DNA of 64,000 nt from Mobula hypostoma (lineage: Eukaryota). The stretch's first letter is position 1. Each line of letters opens with the position of its first letter. The stretch is from assembly GCF_963921235.1 (NCBI RefSeq), contig NC_086097.1, positions 166,844,001 to 166,908,000 of the forward strand, given 5' to 3'. This document shows positions 7,170-59,139 of the stretch, piece by piece. The notes beneath the pieces are model-generated. The model was not told where the DNA came from. It saw nothing but the letters and a program-made list of their open reading frames with translations, and ran no database searches. The translations under genes were made by a program, and so were the position numbers.

Positions 7170-7383
7170 CTTGCATAGAAGTCACCCGGTGGGACAAGTT
7201 CTTGAAACAATTGCAGTTGGTAAAGGTAGAGTCCAATTAGGTGTCCTGCACTGAATATAGCCATCAATACACACAAACAGCTGAATATCAGCGGATCAAA
7301 CTGTTTCCCACAGGACCACCACGTGCATAACCCCAAAAATACAAAGAAGTATACACCTGAGGTCAGAGATGGTAGTGTTATAC
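7170..7383 (-). CDS. PIEZO2: PIEZO2 coding exon, 214 bp: (G)ITLPSLTSGVYFFVFLGLCTWWSCGKQFDPLIFSCLCVLMAIFSAGHLIGLYLYQLQLFQELVPPGDFYA(R)
   Basis: LPSLTS.VYFFVFLGLCTWWS and AGHLIGLYLYQ match PIEZO2 transmembrane helices. Acceptor tttttctgcag|GT, donor AG|gtaaac (phase 2). The preceding intron is only 198 bp. Confidence 0.96.
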
Positions 7384-25589: not shown

Positions 25590-26040
25590 TAATCTAATCC
25601 AGGTCAGATCAGGTTAGTCATCATACCCACGTTAAATCAGGGCGGTGATTGTACCCAGGTTAGATCAGGGCGGTGATCGTACCCAGGTTAGATCGGGGGC
25701 TGATCGTACCCAGGTGAGATCTGGGCGGTGATCGTACCCAGGTGAGATCAGGGGGTGATCGTACCCAGGTGAGATCTGGGCGGTGATCGTACCCAGGTGA
25801 GATCAGGGGGTGATCGTACCCAGGTGAGATCCGGGCGGTGATCATACCCAGGTGAGATCAGGGGGGTGATCGTACCCAGGTGAGATCAGGGGGGTGATCG
25901 TACCCAGGTTAGATCAGTGTAGAGATCTTACCCAGGTTAGATCAGGGCGATGATTGTACCCAGGTTAGATCAAGGAAGAGATTACACTCAGGTTAGATAT
26001 GGGTAGTGATTGTATCCAGTTTAGAGCGGGATACTGATTG
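25590..26040. repeat. Minisatellite, 27-28 bp unit (TGATCGTACCCAGGTGAGATCAGGGCGG-like), about 15 copies
   Basis: Direct tandem units, near-identical at 25640-25920 and decaying at both edges. Confidence 0.95.
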
Positions 26041-26479
26041 TATCGGGTGCAATTGTCTATTTGGGGAAATAACAAGGTATTACCATGTGCAATTCATCTT
26101 GTCATCGGCATTTCGCCATCTCTCATATTCCCAATGATGCTATTTGTTGAACAGCACACTTTACTTCCACTACCAAAATTAATTGAATACAACTCAACCA
26201 TACACCCACAAAGAAGAAATCAAAGCACTGTGATAGAGGTATCGAATGAAAGGTCTTCTTTCCGACATCTATTTCTTCAACACAGCATCTGCAAGCCAGC
26301 TTCCATTTCCATTGCAATCAACCACTTCACTGGTTGTTCCACAACTACAGTTGTTCAAATATTTTTCCATTATAAAATGTAGAACAGTAAACAATAAAAG
26401 AATATTATTAAATTCCCAAGATGTAATAATATTTCTAATTCCTTTCTTTCAGAGTTAAAACAGAGAAAGTGGATAAAGA

Positions 26480-31564: not shown

Positions 31565-34500
31565 GGGGCCTCAGTAACAGTCAGGAGAGGGAAGGGCAGG
31601 AGTCAGAGGCTAGAGAGTACCCCTGTGACTGTACCCCTTAACAATAAGTACCCCTGCTTGAGCACTGTTGGGAGGGGGAAGGAGGAAGAGGCAGTTGGCT
31701 CACAAATAGAGAAAGCTTGGAGACAGTGCGAGAGGAAGGATAGGCAGGTGATAGAGAAGGGACGCACTCAGGCCAATGGTTTGAGATATGCCTATTTTAA
31801 ATCAAGCAGTATCATAAACGAAGTGGGTGAGCTTAGAGCGTGGATCAGTACTTGGAGCTATGGTGCTGTGGCCATTACAGAGTCTTGGATGGCTCAGGGA
31901 CAGGAATGGTAACTTCCAGTGCCAGGCTTTAGATGTTTCAGAAAGGACAGGGAGGGAGACAAAAGAGGTGGGGGTGTGGCACTGCCGATCAGAGATAGTG
32001 TCACAGCTGCAGAAAAGGATGAAGTCATGGAGGGATTGCCTACAGAGTCTCTGTGGGCAGTAGTTAGGAACAGGAAGGGCTTAATAACTCTACTGGGTGT
32101 TTTTTATAGACAGGGACATTGAGGAGCAGATGAGGAGACAGATTCTGGAAAGGTGTAATAATAACAGGGTTGTTGTGGTGGGGGATTTTAATTTCCCACA
32201 TATCCATTGGCATCCCCCTAGAGTGAGGGGTTTAGATGGGGTGGAGTTTGTTAGTTGTGTTCAGGACGGTTTTTTCACACAATATTTATATAAGCCTACA
32301 AGAGGAGAGGCTGTACTCGATCTGGTTTTGGGAAATGAACCTGGTCAGGTGTCAGATCTTTCAGCGAGAGCGCAGTTTAGAGATAGTGATCATAATTCTA
32401 TCTCCTTTATCATAGCATTAGAGAGAGATAGGAACAGACAAGTTAGGAAAGCGTTTAATTGGAGTAAGGAGAAATATGAGTCTATCAGGCAGGAACTTGG
32501 AAGCATAAATTGGAAACAGATGTTCTCAGGGAAACATATGGAAGAAATGTGGCAAATGTTCAGGGAATATTTGCGTGGAGTTCTGCATAGATACGTTCCA
32601 ATGAGACAGGGAAAGGATGGTAGGGTACAGGAACCGTGGGGTACAAAGGCTGTTGTAAATCTAGTCAAGAAGGAAAAAAGAGCTTACGAAACGTTCAAAA
32701 AACTAGGTAATGATAGAGATCTAGAAGATTATAAGGCTAGCAGGAAGGAGCTTAAGAATGAAATTAGGAGAGCCAGAAGGGGCCATGAGAAGGCCTTGGT
32801 GGACAGGATTACGGAAAACCCCAACACACTCTACAAGTATGTGAAGAGCAAGAGGATAAGACATGAGAGAATAGGACCAATCAAGTGTGACAGTGGAAAA
32901 GTATGTGGAACTGGAGGAGATAGCAGAGGTACTTAATGAATACTTTGCTTCAGTATTCACTACGGAAAAGGATCTTGGCAATTGTAGATATGACTTTTAG
33001 TGGATGGAAAATCTTGAGTATGTAGATATTAAGGAAAAGGATGTGCTGCAGCTTTTGCAAAGCATCAAGTTGGATAAGTCACTGCGACCGGACGAGATGT
33101 ACCCCAGGCTATTGTGGGAGGCAAGAGAGGAGACTGCTGAGCCTCTGCTGATGATCTTTGCATCATCAATGGGGACGGAAGAGGTTCCGGAGGATTGGAG
33201 GGTTGCGGATGTTGTTCCCTTATTCAAGAAAGGGAGTAGAGCTAGCCCAGGAAATTATAGACCAGTGAGTCTCACTTCAGTGGTTGTTAAGTTGATGGAG
33301 AAGATCCTGAGAGGTAGGATTTATGAACACTTGGAGAAGCATAATATGATTAGGAATAGTCAGCATGGCTTTGTCTTATGAGTCTAACTGAATTTTTTGA
33401 GGATGTCACTGAACACATTGATAAAGGTAGAGCAGTAGATGTAGTGTATATGGATTTCAGCAAGGCATTTGATAAGGTTCCCCATGCAAGGCTTATTGAG
33501 AAAGTAAGGAGGCATGGGACCCAAGGGGACATTGCTTTGTGGATCCAGAACTGGTTTGCCCACAGAAGGCAAAGAGTGGTTGTAGGTGGGTCATATTCTG
33601 CATGGAGGTCTGTGACAAGTGGTGTGTCGCAGGGATCTGTTCTGGGACCCCTACTCTTCATGATTTTTATAAATGACCTGGATGAGGAAGTGGAGGGATG
33701 GGTTAGTGAATTTGCTGATGACACAAAGGTTGGGGGTCTTGTTGATAGTGTGAAGGGCTGTCAGAGGTTACAGCGGGACATTAATAAGATGCAAAACTGG
33801 GCTGAGAAGTGGCAGATGGAGTTCAACCCAGATAAGTGTGAGGAGGTTCATTCTGGTAGGTCAAATATGATGGCAGAATATAGTATTAATGGTAAGACTC
33901 TTGACAATGTGGAGGATCAGAGGGATCTTGGGGTCCGAGTCCATAGGACACTCAAAGCTGCTGCGCAGGTTGACTCTGTGGTTAAGCGGCATACGATCCA
34001 TTGGCCATGATCAATCGTGGGATTGAGTCTGGGAGCCGAGAGGTAATGTTGCGGCTATTTAGGACCCTGGTCAGACCCCACTTGGAGCACTGTGCTCAGT
34101 TCTGGGTTCCTCACTATAGGAAGGATGTGGAAACCATTGAAAGGGTGCAGAGGAGATGTTGCCTGGATTGGGGAGCATGCCTTATGAGAACAGGTTGAGT
34201 GATCTCAGCCTTTTCTCCTTGGAGTGATGGAGGATGAGAGGTGACCTGACAGAAGTGTATAAGATGATGAGGGGCATTGATCGTGTGGATATTCAGAGGC
34301 TTTTTCCCAGGGCTGAAATGGCTAGCACGCGAGGGCACAGTTTTAAGGTACTTGGAAGTAGGTACAGAGGAGAAATCAAGGGTAAGTTTATTACGCAGAG
34401 AGTGGTGAGTGCGTGGGATGGGCTGTTGGCGGCGGTGGTGGAGGCGGATATGATAGGGTCTTTTAAGGGACTCCTGGACAGATATATGAAGCTCAGAAAA

Positions 34501-34607
34501 ATAGAGGGCTATGGGTAACCCTAGGTAATTTCTAAGGTAAGGACATGTTCGGCACAGCTTTGTGGGCCGAAGGGCCTGTATTGTGCTGTAGGTTTTCTAT
34601 GTTTCTA
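31565..34607 (+). mobile_element. CR1 LINE, near-complete ORF2 (APE endonuclease and RT) with an ORF1 remnant; frameshifted
   Basis: VAITESW, VVVGDFNFPHIHW, LDLVLGN, SDHNSI (endonuclease); NYRPVSLTSVV, YMDFSKAFDKVPH, GVSQGSVLGPLLF, FADDTK (RT); tail ttctatgtttcta; ORF1 piece VPLNNKY..LSTVG. Confidence 0.97.
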
Positions 34608-38150: not shown

Positions 38151-38313
38151 CAGTTCTTCACTCTGGAACTCTGGGTTGTACTGTGCCATGTCCTCTGTTG
38201 GTGGTTGCTGAACTAAACTTTTACAGACGAGCCATGTAGCCAAGCCAGCAACAAACATTCCAACATCTGGAGCAAAGAGTCTAATAATGTTCCCAGCATC
38301 TGCCCCACTCACA
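38151..38313 (-). CDS. PIEZO2: PIEZO2 coding exon, 163 bp (probably equivalent to human exon 5): (S)VSGADAGNIIRLFAPDVGMFVAGLATWLVCKSLVQQPPTEDMAQYNPEFQSEEL
   Basis: Peptide resembles recalled PIEZO2 LKGADAGNGIRVFVPDIGMFIASLTIWLLCRNIVQKPVTDEAAQSNPEFENEEL. Minus-strand acceptor ttcttcacag|T and donor CTG|gtaatt; ends in phase 0, matching the next exon. Confidence 0.95.
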
Positions 38314-39974
38314 CTGTGAAGAAAGAAGATATGCATCTTAAGTAAATATGAATATTTTTACTGTAACATAGCATTCTGGTTAGACATACTTGCATTTTAC
38401 ATAGAGCATTAAAACTTGGTTGAAAGTTTCTAGCAGTATAAAACTGGCAATACTGCTAATCTGGCACTAGATATAAAACTGAAACAATAGTTCCTGATCC
38501 AAGTAAAATGACCATAATCTTGATTACAAGCTTTCATCTAACACTCAAAAGCTTCATGAATCAGCTGGAATCCTTTTCTTTGAGGTACTTCCATCTGTTA
38601 TTTTTTCTAGAACCCCACACCAGACAGTATTCCCAACCAATATAGGGCAGTATTGCTAACCGATGGGCAAAGTGCACTGGCAGATTACAACCAAGCAGTA
38701 ACAACATTCCAATGTTCCTCTTGTTTTCCCAATGCCTTGCAGCAGCAGGTTACAGATGAGTATGGAACCATGTTGGGATTTCTGAGAATGTCCTACAAAA
38801 GGCCATTGAAATTCCAACATATTCCCTTCAGCACAAACCTGTTGGAAAGATACAAGTAGTTAATTGCAAACATGTTTGCACCAGACTATTCTAATAGTTC
38901 TTTGACTAGCTCGACCAAAAAAAAATCCTGCTTATTACTTAGTTGTTTGTGGGATCTTGGAGTATAGATGGCTGGCATTAGTGGCACGGCACGTAGTCTT
39001 ATGGGGAAAGGTTGACAAGGTGGACTTGAAGAGAATATTTTCTCTTGAGAAAGAACTGGAACAAGGGGTCAAAGTATACAAATATTTGGTCTCCTAAGTA
39101 AGAGAAGCAGCATTGTTTCACTCTGCAATAGAATCAAAGCCTTTGAATATATATCTTTGATAATCAAGAGGGTGAAAGATTACTAGATAGACAGGAATCA
39201 AGATTTGAGGTTACAGTTAGATCAGCCATGATCTTATTGAATAGAAAAGCAGGCTCAAGAGGCCAAGGGGCCATTTTGTATGTTCACATTACATATTTCT
39301 TTTATACCTTAGATTACAGCAGCAACTGTACTTAATCCATATGGTCCTTCACCAGCTATGAATTAGTTCTGAAGGGTCCAGAGGACATTAGGGTGTGGTA
39401 GAAATGGGAGTTGGCATCACATGTAGAAATAACAATGATATTCCAGGGACAGACACAAATTCTTCTTCATCATATTTTATTACTTAACTGATGCAAAGAA
39501 ATATCTGAACAAGGGGTGGAAGTAGAACACATTTTTTTTTAAATTTTGTATTTATTTATTCAAAAACAGTGCATTGGCTAACATAAGACATACAGCATAA
39601 AGAAACTACTGCCCACCCAGCTGATGCCCGTAGTTATACTGCTCGCTCCAGGTCTCTAGTCATTCTGCATCTACTCTATCAGTATAAAGCTCTGCTCCTT
39701 TCTCCTCATACCTTTGTCAAACATCTCCTTAAATATGTAAAGAATGCAATTATACAAGATATTTCCAATCTTAAGATGCCCCAAAGTACTACACAACCAA
39801 TGGTGTACTCTTTTGAGGGAAATCTAACATCTAATTTGCATGCAGCAGATAACCTTAACAGCCGCTCTGATAATGGCCAGCTAACCCATGTGCTTTAGTG
39901 ATTGCTAGAAAAGGAAAGGTAAATTGGAAAGAAACTAATATATGGCCTCAACTTGCAACAGATAAGAAACCAAT

Positions 39975-40730
39975 CATAAACATGAGAAATTCTGCAGGTG
40001 CTGGAAATCCAAAGTAACACACACAAAATGCTGGAGGAACTCAGCTGGTCAGACAGCATCCATGGAAACAAACAAACAGTTGACATTTTGGGCCGAGACC
40101 CTTCCTCAGCACTGGAAAGGAAGGGGGAAGATGCCAGAATAAAAAGGTTGGGGGAGGGAGGGGAAGGAGGACAAGCTAGAAGGTGGTGGGTGAAGCCAGG
40201 TGAGTAGGAAAGATAAAGGGCTGGAGAGTAAGGATAAATCACAAACACAAGAAAGTCTGCACATGCTGGAAATCCAAAGGAACACACACAAAATGCTGAA
40301 GGAACTCAGCAGGTCAGACAACATCCATGGAAAAGAGTGAACAATTGATATTTCGGCTGAGACCCTTCCTCAGCACTCAAGAAGGGTTTCATCCTGAAAT
40401 GTTGACGTTTGCTCTTCTCCATAACTGCTGCCTGACCTGCTGAGTTCCTCTACCATTCTGTGTGCGTTGCTTTGGAGAGGAAGTAATCTGATAGGAGAGG
40501 AGAGCGAACCATAGGAGAAAGGGATGGAGGAGGAGACTGAAGGAGTGATGATAGGCAGGTGAGAAGAGGTACGAGGCCAGAATGCAGAATGGAAGAAGTG
40601 GGGGAGGAGGGAGAAATTTTTTTTTACCTGAAGGAGAAATGTACATTCATGCCGTCGTTAGAGGCTACCCAGAAAGAATATAAGGTATTGCTCCTCCACC
40701 CTGAGGGTGGCCTCATCGTGGCACAAGAGC
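39975..40730 (-). mobile_element. Penelope-like 3' end interrupted by a nested fold-back pLTR element (40235-40472)
   Basis: Antisense GIY-YIG end at 40630-40730 and pLTR tail at 39975-40112. The nested insert is flanked by tggagagtaagga / tggagaggaagta. Confidence 0.8.
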
Positions 40731-43559: not shown

Positions 43560-44705
43560 ACCACATTACATATATTGCTATTTTTTTTAACCCAAACACA
43601 GTAATCCCATTTGCCCATATTAGGACTATATTCAGTGCTGCCTTGACTATTTGTCAATTTATACGTCCCTTAAAGCAGTGATTACATCTGACTCCATCAC
43701 CTCCACAAATCAACTGCTCAGTGCAAATTTAAACGCAAACAACAGGAATTCTGCAGATGCTGGAAATTCAAGCAACATACATCAAAGTTGCTGGTGAACG
43801 CAGCAGGCCAAGCAGCATCTATAGGAAGAGGCGCAGTGAACGTCAACTGCGCCTCTTCCTATAGATGCTGCTTGGCCTGCTGCGTTCACCAGCAACTTTG
43901 ATGTATGTTGCTCAGTGTAAAACAATTTTTCCTCAGTTCCTCTTTCAAATTCCTTTCTCTCACCTTAAAACTATGTCCTCATATTCCTGATACCTCTTCC
44001 AAGGGTAAAAAAATTATTATGATCTACCTCACCTTTGCCTGTTATAATTTTATGCATCTTAGTCAAGTCGCCTCAAAGATTTTTTGCTCCAGGTACACAC
44101 TCTCTCTCTCTCTCTCTCTCTCTAAAAAGAGTTATTCATTCTAAGCTACATCCTAGTGAATCTCCTCTGCTTTCTCTCAAGCACAAACTTATCCTTCCTC
44201 TTGGGTGATGACCAGAATAAATGCAATACTCCATGTGCTTTAGCATAACTTCTCAACTTGTGTTGACATTTTCAAGTATTGATGAACTTGAACCCTAAGG
44301 TCACTCTATTCAACAACATTTCTTCATGTCTTACCATTCACTGCATAAGTCCTACCAATGTATTGTCTCATACTTATCAGGATTAATTTCCATCTGCCAA
44401 CACTCAGCCCAACTCATTTCAGCTTTAGACAACCTTCCACACTATCCACAACACTCCCAATTTTCATGTAATCCAATAATTTATTAATTGTACCTCCTAG
44501 GTTCATATCCAAATCATCAATATATACCACAAACAACAAGATCCAGCTTGATCCCTGTGGTATCCCAATGGTCACAAGCTTCCTATCAGTAAAACAATCT
44601 TCCACCACTATCCCATGTCTCCAAATTCTCAATCCAGCAGCTAACCTTGGATTCCATGTGCCTTAATCCTCTGGATTATCCAGTATGTAGTACCTTGTCA
44701 AGTCC
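43560..44705 (-). mobile_element. Old CR1 LINE 3' fragment (host of the 43731-43912 insert)
   Basis: Minus ORF VTIGIPQGSSWILLFVVYIDDLDMNL..KIGSVVDSVEGC. Confidence 0.8.
43731..43912. mobile_element. Fold-back Penelope pLTR element with perfect 67-bp arms
   Basis: Arm 43771-43837 is the reverse complement of 43846-43912; flanked by tgctcagtgcaaa / tgctcagtgtaaa. Confidence 0.9.
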
Positions 44706-44710
44706 CAAAT

Positions 44711-45827
44711 GACATCTCCCCCATTTCACGCACATCTGCTCTCACTCCATCCTCCCGCCACCCCACTAGGAATAGGGTTCCCCTTGTCCTCACCTACCAC
44801 CCCACCAGCCTCCGGGTCCAACATATTATTCTCCGTAACTTCCGCCACCTCCAACAGGATCCTACCACTAAGCACATCTTTCACTCCCCCTCTCTGCTTT
44901 CCGCAGGGATCACTCCCTACGCGACTCCCTTATCCATTTGTCTCCCCCATCCCTCCACACCGATCTCCCTCCTGGTGCTTATCCTTGTAAGCGGAACAAT
45001 TGCTACACATGCCCTTACACTTCCTCCCTTACCACCATTCAGGGCCCCAAACAGTCCTTCCAGGTGAGGCGACACTTCACCTGTGAGTCAGCTGGGGTGA
45101 TATACTGTGTTCGGTGTTCCCGATGTGGCCTTTTATATTTTGGCGAGACCCGACGCAGACTGGGAGATCGTTTCTCTGAACACCTACGCCCTGTCCACCA
45201 GAGAAAGCAGGATCTCCCAGTGGCCATAGTTTTTAATTCAACGTCCCATTCCCATTCTGATATGTCTATCCACGGCCTCCACTACTGTAAAGATGAAGCC
45301 ACACTCAGGTTGGAAGAACAACACCTTATATTCCGTCTGGGTAGCCTCCAACCTGATGGCATGAACATTGACTTCTCAAACTTCCGCTAATACCCCACCT
45401 CCCCCTCGTACCCCATCCGTCATTTATTTATATACACACATTCTTTTTCTGTCTGTCCTTTTTTTTTCCCTCTGTCCCTCTCACTATACCCCTTGCCCAT
45501 TCTCTGGGTTTCCCCCCTCCCCCTTTTCTTTCTCCCTAGGCCTCCTGTCCCATGATCCTCTCATATCCCTTTTGCCAATCAACTGTCCAGCTCTTGGCTC
45601 CATTCCTCCCCCTCCTGTCTTCTCCTATCATTTTGGATCTCCCCCTCCCCCTCCCACTTTCAAATCTCTTTCTAGCTCTTCTTTCAGTTAGTCCTGACGA
45701 AGGGTCTCGGCCCGAAACGTCGACAGTACCTCTTCCTAGAGATGCTGCCTGGCCTGCTGTGTTCACCAGCAACTTTGATGTGTGTGGCTTGAATTTCCGG
45801 CATCTGCAGATTTCCTTGTGTTTGCGT
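44711..45827 (+). mobile_element. Young Penelope-like element, 5'-truncated: intact GIY-YIG endonuclease domain and pseudo-LTR
   Basis: PGAYPCKRNNCYTC..FTCESAGVIYCVRCSRCGLLYFGETRRRLGDRFSEH..EEQHLIFRLGSLQPDGMNIDFSNFR* (ORF 44938-45390); hammerhead at 45691-45724. Confidence 0.95.
45691..45724 (+). ncRNA. Putative minimal type I hammerhead ribozyme (best-preserved core)
   Basis: GTC-CTGACGA-A-GGGT-CTCG-GCCC-GAAA-CG-TC-GAC. All core nucleotides are present, stem III is the palindrome ACGT, and predicted cleavage is after C45721. Confidence 0.75.
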
Positions 45828-46293
45828 ATACAATTAGAAGTGACATTTTTGATCCTTCGGTTAAATTTGAAGAGACCTGGAAGCCATTTATTCAACATTT
45901 TCATATGATGTTAAATTGACTTTTTCCGAATCCTTCTTATTAACTTAAAATATATGAATAGAGGAGTGGAGTTGACGATATTATTGAATGTATTCCATTC
46001 AAGATACTGGTCCAGCCTTGTTTTGTTCCATTTGCTTTCTTTTTGGGTTTGTATTTAGTTTTATTTTTTTGTTTTCTTTGGGGGGGAGGTTTCTTTGCAT
46101 TATTTTTTTCTTTTTATTTCTTTTTTCTTTATGATTAACTATATTAAGAGTTTGGAAGTCTATTACACCTGTATTATTTGAAGTCTTTTTGTACATGTTT
46201 ATCAACAATAAAATAATTCCAATCTCTGTATCAATATTGTTATTCTGTTTATAATTTTGGAAAATTAGTAAAAAGATTTAAAAAGAAAAGAAA
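45828..46293 (+). mobile_element. L1/Tx1-like LINE extreme 3' end
   Basis: IRSDIFDPSVKFEETWKPFIQHF resembles the fish L1 ORF2 terminal KF.K.W.PF motif; T-rich UTR and A-rich tail follow. Confidence 0.55.
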
Positions 46294-53212: not shown

Positions 53213-54144
53213 TATCTGTGTGGATGGCAAGCAAACAAAAGCTTTTCATTTTATCTTGGTATGTTAACAATAATAAACTAATAATAACTACAAAAGAAAT
53301 ATTGCAAATGCGGGAAGTTTGAAATAAACACAGAAAGTGCTGTAAATACTCAACTGATCAGGTGGCATCTGTGGGGATACAACAATTTAGTTCATCAGAA
53401 GTCAGAATAATTAAAGATAAATAGCATTTAAGATGGAGAGGAAAGTTTGGAAATGGTGGAATGACCGAGGCAGGGAACTAAAGAGTGGTCTGAGGTGATG
53501 AAAGGCAGGAAGGGCAAAATGATGGAGTGATGGGCAGTACAAGATGAAAATGCAGAATTATTACCTGAATTTACCAAAGGAAGTTGAAAGGAATGCTGCA
53601 TATCCAGAGTGAAAAGGATGTACTGATGATTATCTTAAATTGATGTAGAGTTTAGAAGGCAGAAATAAGCCAAGTAAAACTCAGAAGATGCTGGAATAAT
53701 ATTAAGTTGTCCTGATACTTCTGTTTCTATCTTTAAATATAATACTTTGCCTATCCATAGTATTTTCTTGATCAATCTAAATTCTAATATCATTATAAAT
53801 TTAATATCCTTGCTATGGGCTGTGCCCAAATTTACACATTAAGTGCCAGGTCAGCACAGAAATGGGACTTTCAGCCCAAGTTGATCTGACTATCCATTTC
53901 ACTGCTTACCCTATTTGCCTGCATTAGGGCCATATTCCAGTATTCCTTTCCTATCTGAGCACCTGTCTATTTCAGTGCTCTAGTTACATCTCCATCTTCA
54001 ACCTCCTCTGGATGCTCATTGGAAATGAACATCATTGAAAAGCCCCTTCCTGAGATTTCCTTCACATCTGGTACACGTGGCAATCAAAGTCTCAACAAAT
54101 TATGCAGCAGGGGAAAGAAGCTGTTAAGTTTATCAGGTTTTAGT

Positions 54145-55187
54145 ACGCTGGAGGAACTCAGCAGGTCGGGCAGCATCAGTGGAAATGATGAGTCTACGTT
54201 TCAGGTCGGATCCCTTCGTCAGGACTGAAGAATGAAGGAGACTGGTCTTTCAACCGAACCTACAAGCATTCTTCAAGGATTTGAAGAATGCTTGTAGGTT
54301 CGGTTGAAAGACCAGTAATTTGAAAGGCAAAGGGGTGGGGGAGGGGAAGCATCGACATCATGGGCAGGAAAACAATGGGTAGTAGAAGGAGGTGGAACCA
54401 TGAGGTAGGTTATAGGCAGCTGGGGGAGGGGGCAGAGTGAAATAGGAATAGAGGAATGGAAGGGGAGGGAATTACCAGAAGTTGAAGAATTCTATGTTCA
54501 TACCAAGGGGCTGGAGACTCCCTGGACGGTATATGAGGTGTTGCTCCTCCAACCTGAGTTTAGCTTAGTTAACTCTTTGATTCCTTCAACACCTTTGCAT
54601 TGACAACAAGCTTCCATTTCTTGTTTACCTTCACCAAACCCACTAACTCACTGCTAGATTTACTTGGTTCTCCGCATTTGAATGTCCATCTGCTATAATA
54701 TTTATATGTCAGTGAAATCTTTCAACATCCCCCTCTCTTAGTTAACCTTCTCCACTCAGGTTGAAGGAGCAAAACCTCACATACTGTCTAGGTAGTCTCT
54801 AGCCCCTTGGTATGAATATAGAATTCTCCAACTTCCGGTAATTCCCTCCCCCTCCCTTCCTCTATCCCTATTTCACTCTGCCCCCTCCCCCAGCTGCCTA
54901 TAATTTACCTCATGGTTCTGCCTCCTTCTTCTACTACCCATTGTTTTCCTGCCCATGATGTCAATGCTTCCCCTCCCCCACCCCTTTGTCTTTCAAATTA
55001 CTGGTCTTTCAACCAAACCTACAAGCATTCTTCAAATCCTTTCCCCTCCTTCATTCTTCAGTCCTGACGAAGGGTTCCGGCCCAAAACGTCGACTTATCA
55101 TTTCCAATGATGCTGCCCGGCCTGCTGAGTTCCTCCAGTGTACTGTAAGTGTTGCTTTGATCCCAGCATCTGCAGATTATTTTGTGT
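54145..55187. mobile_element. Large fold-back Penelope insertion: inverted GIY-YIG-end/pLTR arms around captured host DNA
   Basis: TSD ttaagtttatcaggttttagt (54124-54144, 55188-55208); minus arm 54145-~54560; plus arm ~54755-55187; hammerhead-like motifs at about 54191-54227 (-) and 55059-55095 (+). Confidence 0.92.
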
Positions 55188-56069
55188 TTAAGTTTATCAG
55201 GTTTTAGTTCTTTCAATTTTCCCATCACTTACATCTAATCTTCTACCCCAGTTTGTCTATGACATCAAAATGTTCTTGGATCTTCTCTGATCTCACACCT
55301 ACAGGAATTTAGCATGTTTTAATGTCTGAACTCACATTTACAGGAATTCAACATTTCAACTCTTTGATTCCTTCAACACCTTTGCATTGACAGCAAGCTT
55401 CCATTTCTTGTTTACCTTCGCCAAACCCACTAACTGACTGCTAGATTTACTTGGCTCTCCGCATTTGAATGTCCATCTGCTATAATATTTATATGTCAGT
55501 GAAATCTTTCAACATCCCCCTCTCTGTTTGCCAAACCCTGTACGTTTGTTAAATCTATTACTCACCTCATCTTTCACCCCGCAATGTAAATCATATTCAA
55601 AGGTCTTTATTTCATTGTTGGTTTCTTAAAATATCTCATACCTGCTTGCTCAGATCAATTACACTGAAATATAGTTTTAAAGTATTTGCAGATATATGGT
55701 TGAAAGCAAATAAATCACACTTTGGCAATGCATCAGAGGTGAGATGTCTTTCACTTAAGCAGCCAACTTTTTAACTACTAAGCTAAATTGATGGTGTTTC
55801 ATGGCAGCAAACCATCAGGAACTGGAAATGGTGTGAAACTCACCACAGATTTTCTTTGGAAATTTAATTGAAACAAATTTTTAATAACTTTTTGCTAAAT
55901 ATTGGCATTATTTTCTGTGATTTCCATCTATATTCATCAAACTAAGAAGGAGACATAAACCAGGCAAACAGGCCCTTTAGCCCAGTGAGTCCATGACAAT
56001 CATTAACCACCTATTTACACTAATCTTACGTTAATCACTTTTATGTTCTCCTCATATTCTCATCAGCTA

Positions 56070-56300: not shown

Positions 56301-57150
56301 GGCAGCGCAGGAAAATGGAACACCTTCCCACTGTGGGAACTAACATTGGATATGCACAAAATCATGCAACAAATTTTAGGTGTTAATAAATGAAGCTGAT
56401 TGAGTTGCTGCAATGAGATTTTTTTTATTATTAATGTGCTGTACTTGGAGTTCAGTTTCCCTTCAAATGCTCCAAATTTTATGTTAGAGGATAGATAAGA
56501 TGCAATGTTAAAGGGAAAAAATATTTGTGCAGGTTGGAAGATTTTGGGACTTAAGACTTTAGATTACTGCCTGGAAGCAACAGATGATAGAAAAGCTTTG
56601 TAAAACTGTTCCTGCTGAAGGATCTCAGCCCGAAATGTCAACTGTACTCTTTTCCATAGATGTTGCTGAGTTCCTCCAGCATTTTGTGTGTATTGCTTGG
56701 ATTTCCAGCATCCGCAGATTTTTTCTTGTTTTTAGAAACCGTTCCTGTTTGCTGGGGCATCTGCCCTGTCCTGGAATTGTTATGCCTCAGGGAGCACTCA
56801 TGCTTTGATGATGCATGTTGAGAAAATTAAGAAGTTAAAGTGTCAGGCATCTTCTGATAGGTCCACTTAAGATTGCCTGGTGCAGGATGCAAATAACCAG
56901 ACTGGACAAAGAGAGTCTCCCGAGCTAGCTGGTGACTGAGTTCACAAACAAAGTGTCACTTTAGCATAATAAATATAGTTTACATTGTGGCAAAAAAGCC
57001 AAATGGTAAAATTGCTGTAGAAATCCAAACAGATACTGGAACCAATCAATAAGGATTCATGTCAAAGAAACATCATAACACAGTAATAAGGGAGAGGCAT
57101 TCTGTTGTGTATTTAGTATTTCAGTAATATTTGAGTAATATTGTAAATAT

Positions 57151-57390
57151 GTAACACACATTAAAGTTGCTGGTGAACGCAGCAGGCCAGGCAGCATCTA
57201 TAGGAAGAAGTACAGTCGACGTTTCGGGCCGAGACACTTCGTCAGGACTAACTGAAAAAAGAGCTAGTAAGAGATTTGAAAGTCGACTGTACCTCTTCCT
57301 ATAGACGCTGCCTGGCCTGCTGCGTTCACCAGCAACTTTGATGTGTGTTACTTGAATTTCCAGCATCTGCAGAATTCCTCGTGTTTGCGT
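57151..57390. mobile_element. Young fold-back Penelope pLTR element inserted in the Gypsy LTR
   Basis: TSD ttgtaaatat(gt) at 57141 and 57391; about 70-bp arms 57151-57220 and 57282-57351; hammerhead on the minus strand at 57213-57250. Confidence 0.9.
57213..57250 (-). ncRNA. Putative minimal hammerhead ribozyme
   Basis: Minus strand TAGTC-CTGACGA-A-GTGT-CTCG-GCCC-GAAACGTC-GACTG, with one stem II mismatch; same orientation as the PIEZO2 pre-mRNA. Confidence 0.65.
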
Positions 57391-59139
57391 TTGTAAATAT
57401 GTTGTTGCTTAAGCATTCTTTGCTTGTTTAAATAATTCATTAGGGGTTATATATAAAAGTATGTAAATGGCAAACATCTTCACACCACTGCGTCACATGT
57501 GTATGTCTTACTTAAAGTAAAAGTGAATGTACAGGAGTTATTTCCCGGCTCACTTGTTTTCCTTTCAATCAGTCTTTATGTTTTGGAGTTACAAAACATT
57601 AACAGTGGCAACAAGTAAGTTTTAACTAAACCCAAGATGACTTCCTACCTGTTCAAGGACAGTGAGATGTTTGATTTTTAAAAAAGTGCAATGAGAAATG
57701 GTTGAGCAAAATGAGAAATAAAATGAGAAATGGTTGAGTGCAGCATGTATTTTTCACAAGAGGAAAGACAGCCAAGTTTTTAAAAAGGCAAAAATTGGAA
57801 GTACTTGCGAGTTCATAAACAGTGAGTACCGTGTGATAATAATCATAAATTAAAAAAATAGAAATGGCTGGCTACATTGGAAAGATAGACACATTTGATT
57901 GCACAAGAGGTAACTGGATTTTGTATACTTAACAGATTGAGCAGTATGTTATAGCAAATGGAATAGATGATGAGAAGAGGGTACCAGTTTTCCTTAGTAC
58001 ATTGGATTTAAAGGCATACAGTTTGCTTAGAAGTTTAACTGCGCCAACCAAACCAGCTGAATTGAGCTTTGAACCAAAACCCCTATTGAATGCAGAACAC
58101 TTTAGGTTTCATAAGTGGAATCAAAAGGAAGAGGAGTCCATTTCAGCGTACATTGTTGCATTAAAGTAGTTGTCTGAGAATTGTCAGTTCAGTAATGGGC
58201 TTAATGATGTACCAAGAGATCATTTAGTTTGTGGAATCTTGCAAGAATGCTTTCAAAAGTGGCTCCTAAATGAAGTACAACTCACATTTAAAAGAGCAGT
58301 TGAAATTGTTGTATCAATGGAAACTGCAGACAGAAATGCAGTTGAGTTGCAGTTGAGTTGCAGTCAGGAATGAAAATGAGCATGAACAAAATTGAAGTGT
58401 CTGAACTGGAACTTGCCTGGCTAAACAAATTGTGTTACCATTGTGTGAGGAGTTCAAATTGAATAAACCAATGCAGACTTAAAGGTGAAACTTGCAACAA
58501 GGTAGGACACATACAAAAAGCATGTCGAGATGACAAAAATAAATGAACTGCGCAGGGAAGAGATAAAAATAAAAAATCAAGTTGCAGTTTCAACATAGTA
58601 CTAATCTGCCTACTGTTGATGAAAAATCTGATAATGATGAAAGTGACACCGGACTTGAGAGTTACAGTGTGAAAACTAATCATAGACAAGCAATATGGTT
58701 TACACTAGAGTGAATGACAAATTAATTAAAATGGAATTAGACACTGGTTTGGGTGTTTCAGTCACTCCACAAGAGTTTGAATATACTAAACTGAAGCCTT
58801 AAGATATCCAGCTAAGAACTTATATTGGAAAAAAGATAACTCCTATGGGAACGACATTTGTAGCAGTGAAATACAACAGCCACCAAGCCACATTAGGCTT
58901 TTATGTGATAAAAACATTGTGAGTACATGAGTGGCTAAGACAACTACAACTTGATTGGAGATTCACCCACCAGTTGCATGCCACATCCTCAGTAATAGAG
59001 TCAACTGGACGTGAACTAAAAAAGACAATGGATGATTCCACAGCAATGTTCAAGGACCCTACTCTCCATTTCTCATTGGCCTGCAACTGGCTCTTCCTCT
59101 CCTTCTTCTCATTCAGTCACCTGAGGTTGCTTTCCCGAC

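Follow-up and report, generated by a model that had tools for sequence, protein, structure and literature searches.

Host DNA at the center of an inverted Penelope insertion: a local copy probably acquired after integration

Introduction

How did a piece of host DNA come to lie between the two arms of an inverted Penelope insertion? The question is raised by a locus in the window, as the whole 64-kb stretch of DNA analyzed here is called, in which two head-to-head 3' ends of a Penelope-like element flank a direct copy of DNA from just downstream of the insertion. A sequence-only reading of the stretch had proposed that the reverse transcriptase (RT) or a repair polymerase switched template to this downstream DNA during integration, before making the second arm. 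The structure is real, and the central copy of downstream DNA is confirmed. Its best explanation is probably a succession of two events, namely an inverted Penelope insertion and then a staggered break of the hairpin loop, patched from about 790 bp away.

Anatomy of the locus and its host gene

The two arms are bracketed by a 21-bp target-site duplication, the copies of which are identical at all 21 positions (Table 1). The final 3 nt of the left copy also match the 3' end of the left arm, so that there is a microhomology at 54142-54144.

Table 1. Features of the inverted Penelope insertion and of the source of its central piece (positions in the window)
Feature	Position	Strand	Basis or remark
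Left copy of the 21-bp target-site duplication	54124..54144	+	Sequence comparison; single copy at the empty site, organism C
Left Penelope arm, without the 43-nt tail	54142..54564	-	Peptide match, family contigs, core motif scan
Snap-back inverted duplication, 36 nt, left arm only	54241..54276	.	Pairs with 54281-54316, 4-nt loop
First copy of the 9-bp direct repeat, TTAGTTAAC	54565..54573	+	Directly after the left arm
168-bp templated copy of 55358-55525	54571..54738	+	4 mismatches
Second copy of the 9-bp direct repeat, TTAGTTAAC	54738..54746	+	
7-nt filler before the right arm	54747..54753	+	
Right Penelope arm, full 3' end	54754..55187	+	Includes the 43-nt tail, 55145-55187
Right copy of the 21-bp target-site duplication	55188..55208	+	Junction also in organism B (contig from 55167)
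Ancestral single-copy source of the captured piece, presumably intronic	55358..55525	+	Unbroken, flat depth in organisms B and C

The window falls within the 5' part of PIEZO2, and its repeat content suggests that the host is a cartilaginous fish. Two exons were recognized on the minus strand, one at 7172-7381, which matches amino acids 237-305 of the solved PIEZO2 (E=8e-32), and one at 38217-38312, which matches amino acids 112-141 (E=1e-8). For the upstream exons, motif searches on the minus strand of the window yielded no convincing match, which suggests that these exons lie beyond it and that the focal site is within an intron. The two exons support the earlier description of the source as intronic.

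The Penelope arms

The earlier assignment of the arms to Penelope is supported by a peptide of the left arm, which shares 22 of 27 amino acids with the last part of a GIY-YIG ORF at 44872-45387 (E=1e-14). This ORF matches PF01541 at E=3.8e-4 and 21.1 bits, slightly under the cut-off of 22.6. The left arm contains the last 30 codons of the GIY-YIG ORF, the 3' UTR and a hammerhead-like core at 54222 on the minus strand. The right arm has an in-frame stop at 54800 and a hammerhead-like core at 55064. The core pattern matches both arms; an Rfam search of the window returned ten matches, all under their gathering scores, with no hammerhead among them at E<=1. The insert is 5'-truncated and contains no RT. 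A 43-nt 3' tail is present on the right arm and missing from the left one, which is the arrangement of an inverted pLTR with a tail on one arm only.

This anatomy is that described for Penelope, in which an inverted 5'-truncated copy occurs and a tail of 30-40 bp is optional on one arm (PMC8557442, PMC3846280, PMC11167929). The focal insert resembles the inverted-pLTR insertions of Penelope/Poseidon elements (Arkhipova et al. 2013; Craig et al. 2021; Frangieh et al. 2024) in its head-to-head truncated and inverted copies, the tail on one arm, the GIY-YIG C terminus, a putative hammerhead-like core and the target duplication. It differs from rotifer Penelope insertions, the duplications of which are 8-10 bp long (PMC3846280), in having a duplication of 21 bp and a center that is a copy of the neighboring intron. 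In the rotifer, host DNA found between pLTRs, or as a spacer before the 3' pLTR, was moved to a new site, and the available text of that report describes no local source for it (PMC3846280).

The arms differ at 29 of their 384 ungapped paired positions (7.6%). In the coding part, 8 of 10 differences are non-synonymous or nonsense, compared to 80% expected. At one CpG the two arms have decayed in opposite directions, and the base at 54362 is common to both arms and absent from the family contigs. To judge from these substitutions, the arms appear to have started from a single template and to have decayed neutrally over a long time. Editing by ADAR or APOBEC was considered as the source of the divergence and rejected, for there is no one-way bias and 7 of the 29 differences are of the CpG type. 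A 20-nt motif of the arms was sought in metagenome contigs; the one locus found agrees with the window over no more than 21 nt and was taken as chance.

The left arm also contains a snap-back, in which a perfect 36-nt inverted duplication replaces 4 nt of the arm. With its partner it spans 54241-54316, and it is the third template-switch-like event within the focal insert.

The captured piece and the 9-bp repeat

The central piece is a direct copy of the downstream sequence, identical at 164 of 168 positions (E=7e-80); the sequence-only reading had counted about four mismatches, and there are exactly four. The source begins 149 bp past the right target duplication, where that reading had placed it, and 787 bp past the start of the central copy. 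No third copy of the 168-mer is present within the 64-kb window.

The 9-bp motif noticed earlier at both junctions of the captured piece was found there and nowhere else in the window. The two occurrences of TTAGTTAAC, at 54565 and 54738, compare with an expected frequency of about 9e-6 per site. The captured piece overlaps the first 9-mer by 3 nt and the second by 1 nt, so that the net gain is 164 + 9 = 173 bp. The family contigs diverge from the window after 54564; the first 9-mer therefore starts exactly at the end of the left arm. Neither junction of the captured piece carries a poly(A), an A or T run, new element sequence or a tail. The left flank was considered as the origin of the short filler at the center and rejected: the best local score, 16, is reached by 4.3% of 3000 random windows, which is not significant with four windows tried.

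Contigs of three organisms

Fifteen runs were screened for the stretch. Twelve of them, from three organisms, A, B and C, hold part of it, and the contigs of four runs were examined: X1 from organism A (possibly the window's own sample), X5 from organism B, and X9 and X11, which are one sample of organism C. The share of the window's words found was 0.80 in A, 0.50-0.53 in B and 0.09 in C.

The empty orthologous site, which the sequence-only reading had asked to be inspected, was found in organism C. There, 53500-54144 lies on one 2.36-kb contig that then resumes at 55213, with one copy of the 21-bp sequence and without the insert, and the target duplication around the inverted arms is thereby borne out. 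As the 168-mer is present in this organism only at the downstream position, the downstream copy is the ancestral source, and the direction of copying that had been proposed, from the downstream flank to the center, is correct. Over the source, B and C have a flat depth, which supports a single-locus origin of the 168-mer.

In organism A, two 123-nt contigs of run X1, 54576-54698 and 55363-55485, match the central and the source variant without difference, and their ends are exactly as expected for a 31-mer bubble formed by two copies. The central variant has a depth of 8.7 and the source 9.7; the flanks have 9.1 and 11.6. Since the variants are as deep as the flanks, they represent two loci and not alleles. 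No contig across the two central junctions is among those listed for A, so that the placement of the central copy is taken from the window's assembly. Own-copy pieces of the arms are absent among the contigs listed even for the run of A, which indicates that contig cleaning removes records here. The family contigs accumulate on the arms and not elsewhere.

These data make it extremely improbable that the central piece is an assembly artifact, a dispersed repeat, a normal part of the Penelope consensus or the product of copying in the reverse direction. Inverted Penelope structures are known to trouble assemblies (PMC8557442), and the lack of a listed contig over the central junctions of A, as well as the possible identity of X1 with the window's own sample, would be in line with an artifact. 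However, both variants occur in read-derived contigs of A at flank-like depths. A repeat is contradicted by the even depth that B and C have over the source and by the family contigs, which are confined to the arms and leave the window after 54564. Reverse copying is contradicted by organism C, which has the source without the insert.

Organism B carries the Penelope insertion, since both of its junctions are present in contigs of run X5. One contig ends at 54167, 23 nt inside the left arm; a second begins at 55167, 21 nt inside the tail of the right arm. This second contig passes through the source without a break and reaches 56500. Its depth over the source is 42.8, a mean that is blind to a collapsed copy. 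The depth is zero at 54584-54690, with about 84 in 100 of the run read, and the region of the bubble arm, 54576-54698, has zero depth in X5, X9 and X11. The zero depth in B is by itself not proof, because such holes occur also in run X1 of organism A (55226-55332). The junction at the center of B is not among the best 15 of 246 joints. The unbroken source contig and the zero depth at the center indicate that organism B most likely has no central copy.

Relative age of the capture

The flanks of A and B differ at 26 of 2201 positions (1.2%) and those of A and C by about 7.7%. The captured pair differs at 4 of 168 positions (2.4%), compared to 29 of 384 (7.6%) in the arms (Fisher p=0.018). Without the CpG-type changes, the counts are 3 of 164 and 22 of 370 (p=0.044, the denominators being approximate). 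The divergence of the arms equals that of the A and C flanks and is far above that of the A and B flanks (p=3e-11).

One of the four captured-pair differences can be polarized. At 54649 the central copy keeps the ancestral base, and the counterpart in the source, 55436, is changed in A. Organisms B and C and the central copy agree at this position, so that the change arose on the source of A after A and B split. The other three differences, at 55393, 55420 and 55455, are unpolarized, the bases of organism C not being among the rows listed. Organism B appears equal to the source of A at these three positions, for which no row is present among the best 40 of 221 substitution rows, even though rows of B rank above some of those 40.

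If the capture were as old as the arms, 11.7 further differences would be expected and three are seen (P(<=3)=0.003, or 0.02 at the non-CpG rate). A capture at the split of A and B predicts 1.0 difference (P(>=3)=0.08). A capture at twice that age predicts 3.0, and is the best fit by divergence alone (P(=3)=0.22 versus 0.06). The captured piece would thus be much younger than the arms, by divergence about three times, unless the arms began unlike each other or mutate faster. Both exceptions speak against a later patch. The GC content of the arms is 48-49% compared to 38%, and the arms may mutate faster; furthermore, they may come from two slightly different templates. On the other side, human inverted-repeat loci of up to 100 bp have a lower, not a higher, substitution rate in their arms (PMC7897504), which favors a later patch. 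The 21-bp duplication has no differences and the 36-nt snap-back also has none (P=0.06 at the arm rate), so that neither shows an age.

Capture during integration as an unlikely alternative

The timing in the sequence-only reading, a template switch before the second arm was made, is not borne out, given the younger divergence of the captured piece, its apparent absence from organism B and its own 9-bp duplication. The remainder of that interpretation stands: the Penelope identity, the direction of the copy, its single-locus origin and local templated synthesis are all supported.

A one-step origin, in which the Penelope RT or a repair polymerase copied the downstream flank during integration and then made the second arm, with the piece lost or hidden in B, is unlikely, and yet it retains some weight because the center junction of B was not seen directly in the contigs. 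It has precedents in L1. Templated insertions of less than 250 bp occur during L1 integration, with 22 cases in one study (Zumalave et al., bioRxiv 2024.08.27.596794) and three in another (Mendez-Dorantes et al., PMC11702581), and the focal piece resembles these and the insertions of Nam et al. (PMC10191854) in being a non-element piece below 250 bp with a template near the target. Only 149 bp separate the source from the target duplication, and the snap-back is another instance of template switching in the same insert.

However, the L1 templates are typically within 15 bp of the site (bioRxiv 2024.08.27.596794), closer than the focal source, and the focal piece has a 9-bp repeat of its own and appears younger than the insertion. 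The equal age of piece and insertion that characterizes the L1 events was not found, to judge from the divergence tests (P=0.003-0.02) and the apparent absence in B, which are not watertight. A single step would need three additions. The arms would have to be hypermutable or unlike from the start, B would have to have lost the piece separately, and a 9-bp repeat would have to arise without a second cut. Hypermutable arms would be at odds with the human inverted repeats, the arms of which mutate less (PMC7897504).

An insertion and a probable later patch

The two-event origin, which remains the probable one, can be laid out as follows. Shortly after the A/B lineage had separated from C, the insertion of a Penelope-like element into the PIEZO2 intron would have given a 5'-truncated copy, an inverted tail-less second copy and a 21-bp target duplication. 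The structure of this product and the empty site are observed; the chemistry is inferred. The result would have been a hairpin-prone palindrome, its arms about 400 bp long and its loop about 21 nt. The loop would have broken much later, close to when A and B split, with a 9-nt stagger and 3' overhangs. Through the 3-nt microhomology, the left end would have annealed about 790 bp downstream, to the minus strand, and been extended by 165 nt, and the extended end would have rejoined the right end through the 1-nt microhomology. Fill-in would have duplicated the 9-mer. The spacer would have grown by 173 bp, which should stabilize the palindrome. The product, the direction and the relative youth of the copy are observed, whereas the break, the enzyme and the template are inferred.

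Local DNA, copied by SDSA/MMBIR-like synthesis, is somewhat the more probable template. Nascent PIEZO2 pre-mRNA copied by a reverse transcriptase has a little less than an even chance: the minus strand is also the strand of the PIEZO2 pre-mRNA, so that it is equally compatible with an RT working on nascent RNA and with DNA synthesis.

When the copy and one 9-mer are removed in silico, a long stem is predicted with the remaining 9-mer in its loop, which would place the site of the capture in the loop of the inverted repeat. The loop comprises 21 of about 870 bp, and a random site would fall there about 2% of the time. It speaks against two events that the piece could instead have been present in organism B and been deleted between the 9-bp repeats.

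Cunningham and coworkers are said to have described in 2003 a revision of experimental palindromes by breaks at their center, mostly with small central deletions. The focal locus would be similar in that the center of an inverted repeat was broken and repaired and the repeat became less perfect; it differs in being a natural locus with a gain of 173 bp from a local template. The work of Cunningham and coworkers is also mentioned in PMC3300023.

Another possibility is that a Penelope or LINE endonuclease later cut the AT-rich loop, with a 9-bp target duplication, and that nascent PIEZO2 intron RNA was reverse-transcribed in trans with no element sequence. Duplications of at least 5 bp mark the endonuclease-made class 1 of the templated sequence insertion polymorphisms (TSIPs; PMC5110952). 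A Penelope protein cuts both strands of AT-rich DNA, its own pLTR included, and primes without homology (PMC11167929), and the rotifer Penelope duplications are 8-10 bp long (PMC3846280). The polarity of the minus-strand pre-mRNA is right for priming from the left end, and co-insertion of local pre-mRNA has been seen once for L1 (PMC10191854). Nevertheless, this origin is very unlikely, since there is no poly(A), new element sequence or tail at either junction, and an endonuclease blind to structure would, by the above arithmetic, rarely choose a site in the 21-nt loop.

Comparison with other repair products

A later patch of the kind proposed resembles the TSIPs (Onozawa and Aplan 2016, PMC5110952), which are germ-line patches from an intact donor with microhomology at the junctions. 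The focal donor, unlike theirs, is not distant but less than 1 kb away, and the site is in the loop of a palindrome. The 9-bp repeat, considered as a product only, agrees with the duplication of at least 5 bp in class 1, but the poly(A) with an upstream signal of that class is missing (PMC5110952). Class 2 is matched by the microhomologies of 3 and 1 nt and the lack of poly(A), but not by its freedom from duplications and its distant donors. The repair patches of class 2 are typically without duplications (PMC5110952), which speaks against a patch as the second event. Insertions templated by Pol theta are 3-30 bp long and copied from within about 30 bp (PMC7165422); the focal tract is 168 bp long and comes from 787 bp away.

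Both ingredients are of kinds already known, namely L1 templated insertions and TSIPs. The literature searched, which was mostly without subscription journals, yielded no report of a local patch at the center of a Penelope fold-back. The focal product is an inert one-off scar; it is non-coding, with no sign of function or spread, and the onward mobilization that the sequence-only reading had envisaged for the captured piece left no trace. The locus means that host DNA between inverted Penelope arms need not have been captured during transposition and can be the scar of a later repair. It is a dated example, from three species, of a natural palindrome revised by local templated gain and not by deletion. 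As a single non-coding event it would gain weight if such patches were found to recur genome-wide.

A broader conjecture, which at present is quite unlikely to be right, is that the centers of Penelope fold-backs are recurrent germ-line break sites, patched locally under a short duplication, possibly by the Penelope endonuclease and RT acting on nascent host RNA. If it were true, the very high copy number of fold-backs in the lineage would turn such patching into a general source of local micro-duplications, and would offer a natural and datable data set on how palindromes are revised in the vertebrate germ line.

Other fold-backs and repeats in the window

Inverted Penelope structures of this kind are routine here: a bracketing repeat is present in all four local inverted pairs that were examined in the window, matching at 21 of 21, 12 of 13, 12 of 12 and 10 of 11 positions, the last possibly by chance. 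Only the focal pair has a spacer copied from unique flanking DNA, with a score of 156 versus 9, 9 and 21. The limits of the spacer with the score of 21 were set by eye, and its match probably comes from a neighboring Penelope copy.

Two fold-backs, at 43715-43921 and 57141-57402, are younger miniature head-to-head structures, each with one tailed and one tail-less arm. They have bracketing repeats of 12-13 bp and spacers without a match in the flanks. An older cluster of tandem and inverted Penelope 3' ends occupies 39972-40483. A longer Penelope copy at 44645-45830 combines a near-complete GIY-YIG domain (PF01541, E=3.8e-4) with a 3' end.

Directly upstream of the source of the captured piece, at 55286-55354, is an old tandem pair of 30 nt, the units of which are 83% alike at a spacing of 39; the contig of organism C has an 11-nt gap at 55337, within this pair. 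At 25599-26042 is a tandem array whose units, 77-83% alike, recur about every 84 nt. Large LINE fragments, which we take to be CR1-like, are present at 32088-34596, where endonuclease and RT frames were recognized by eye.
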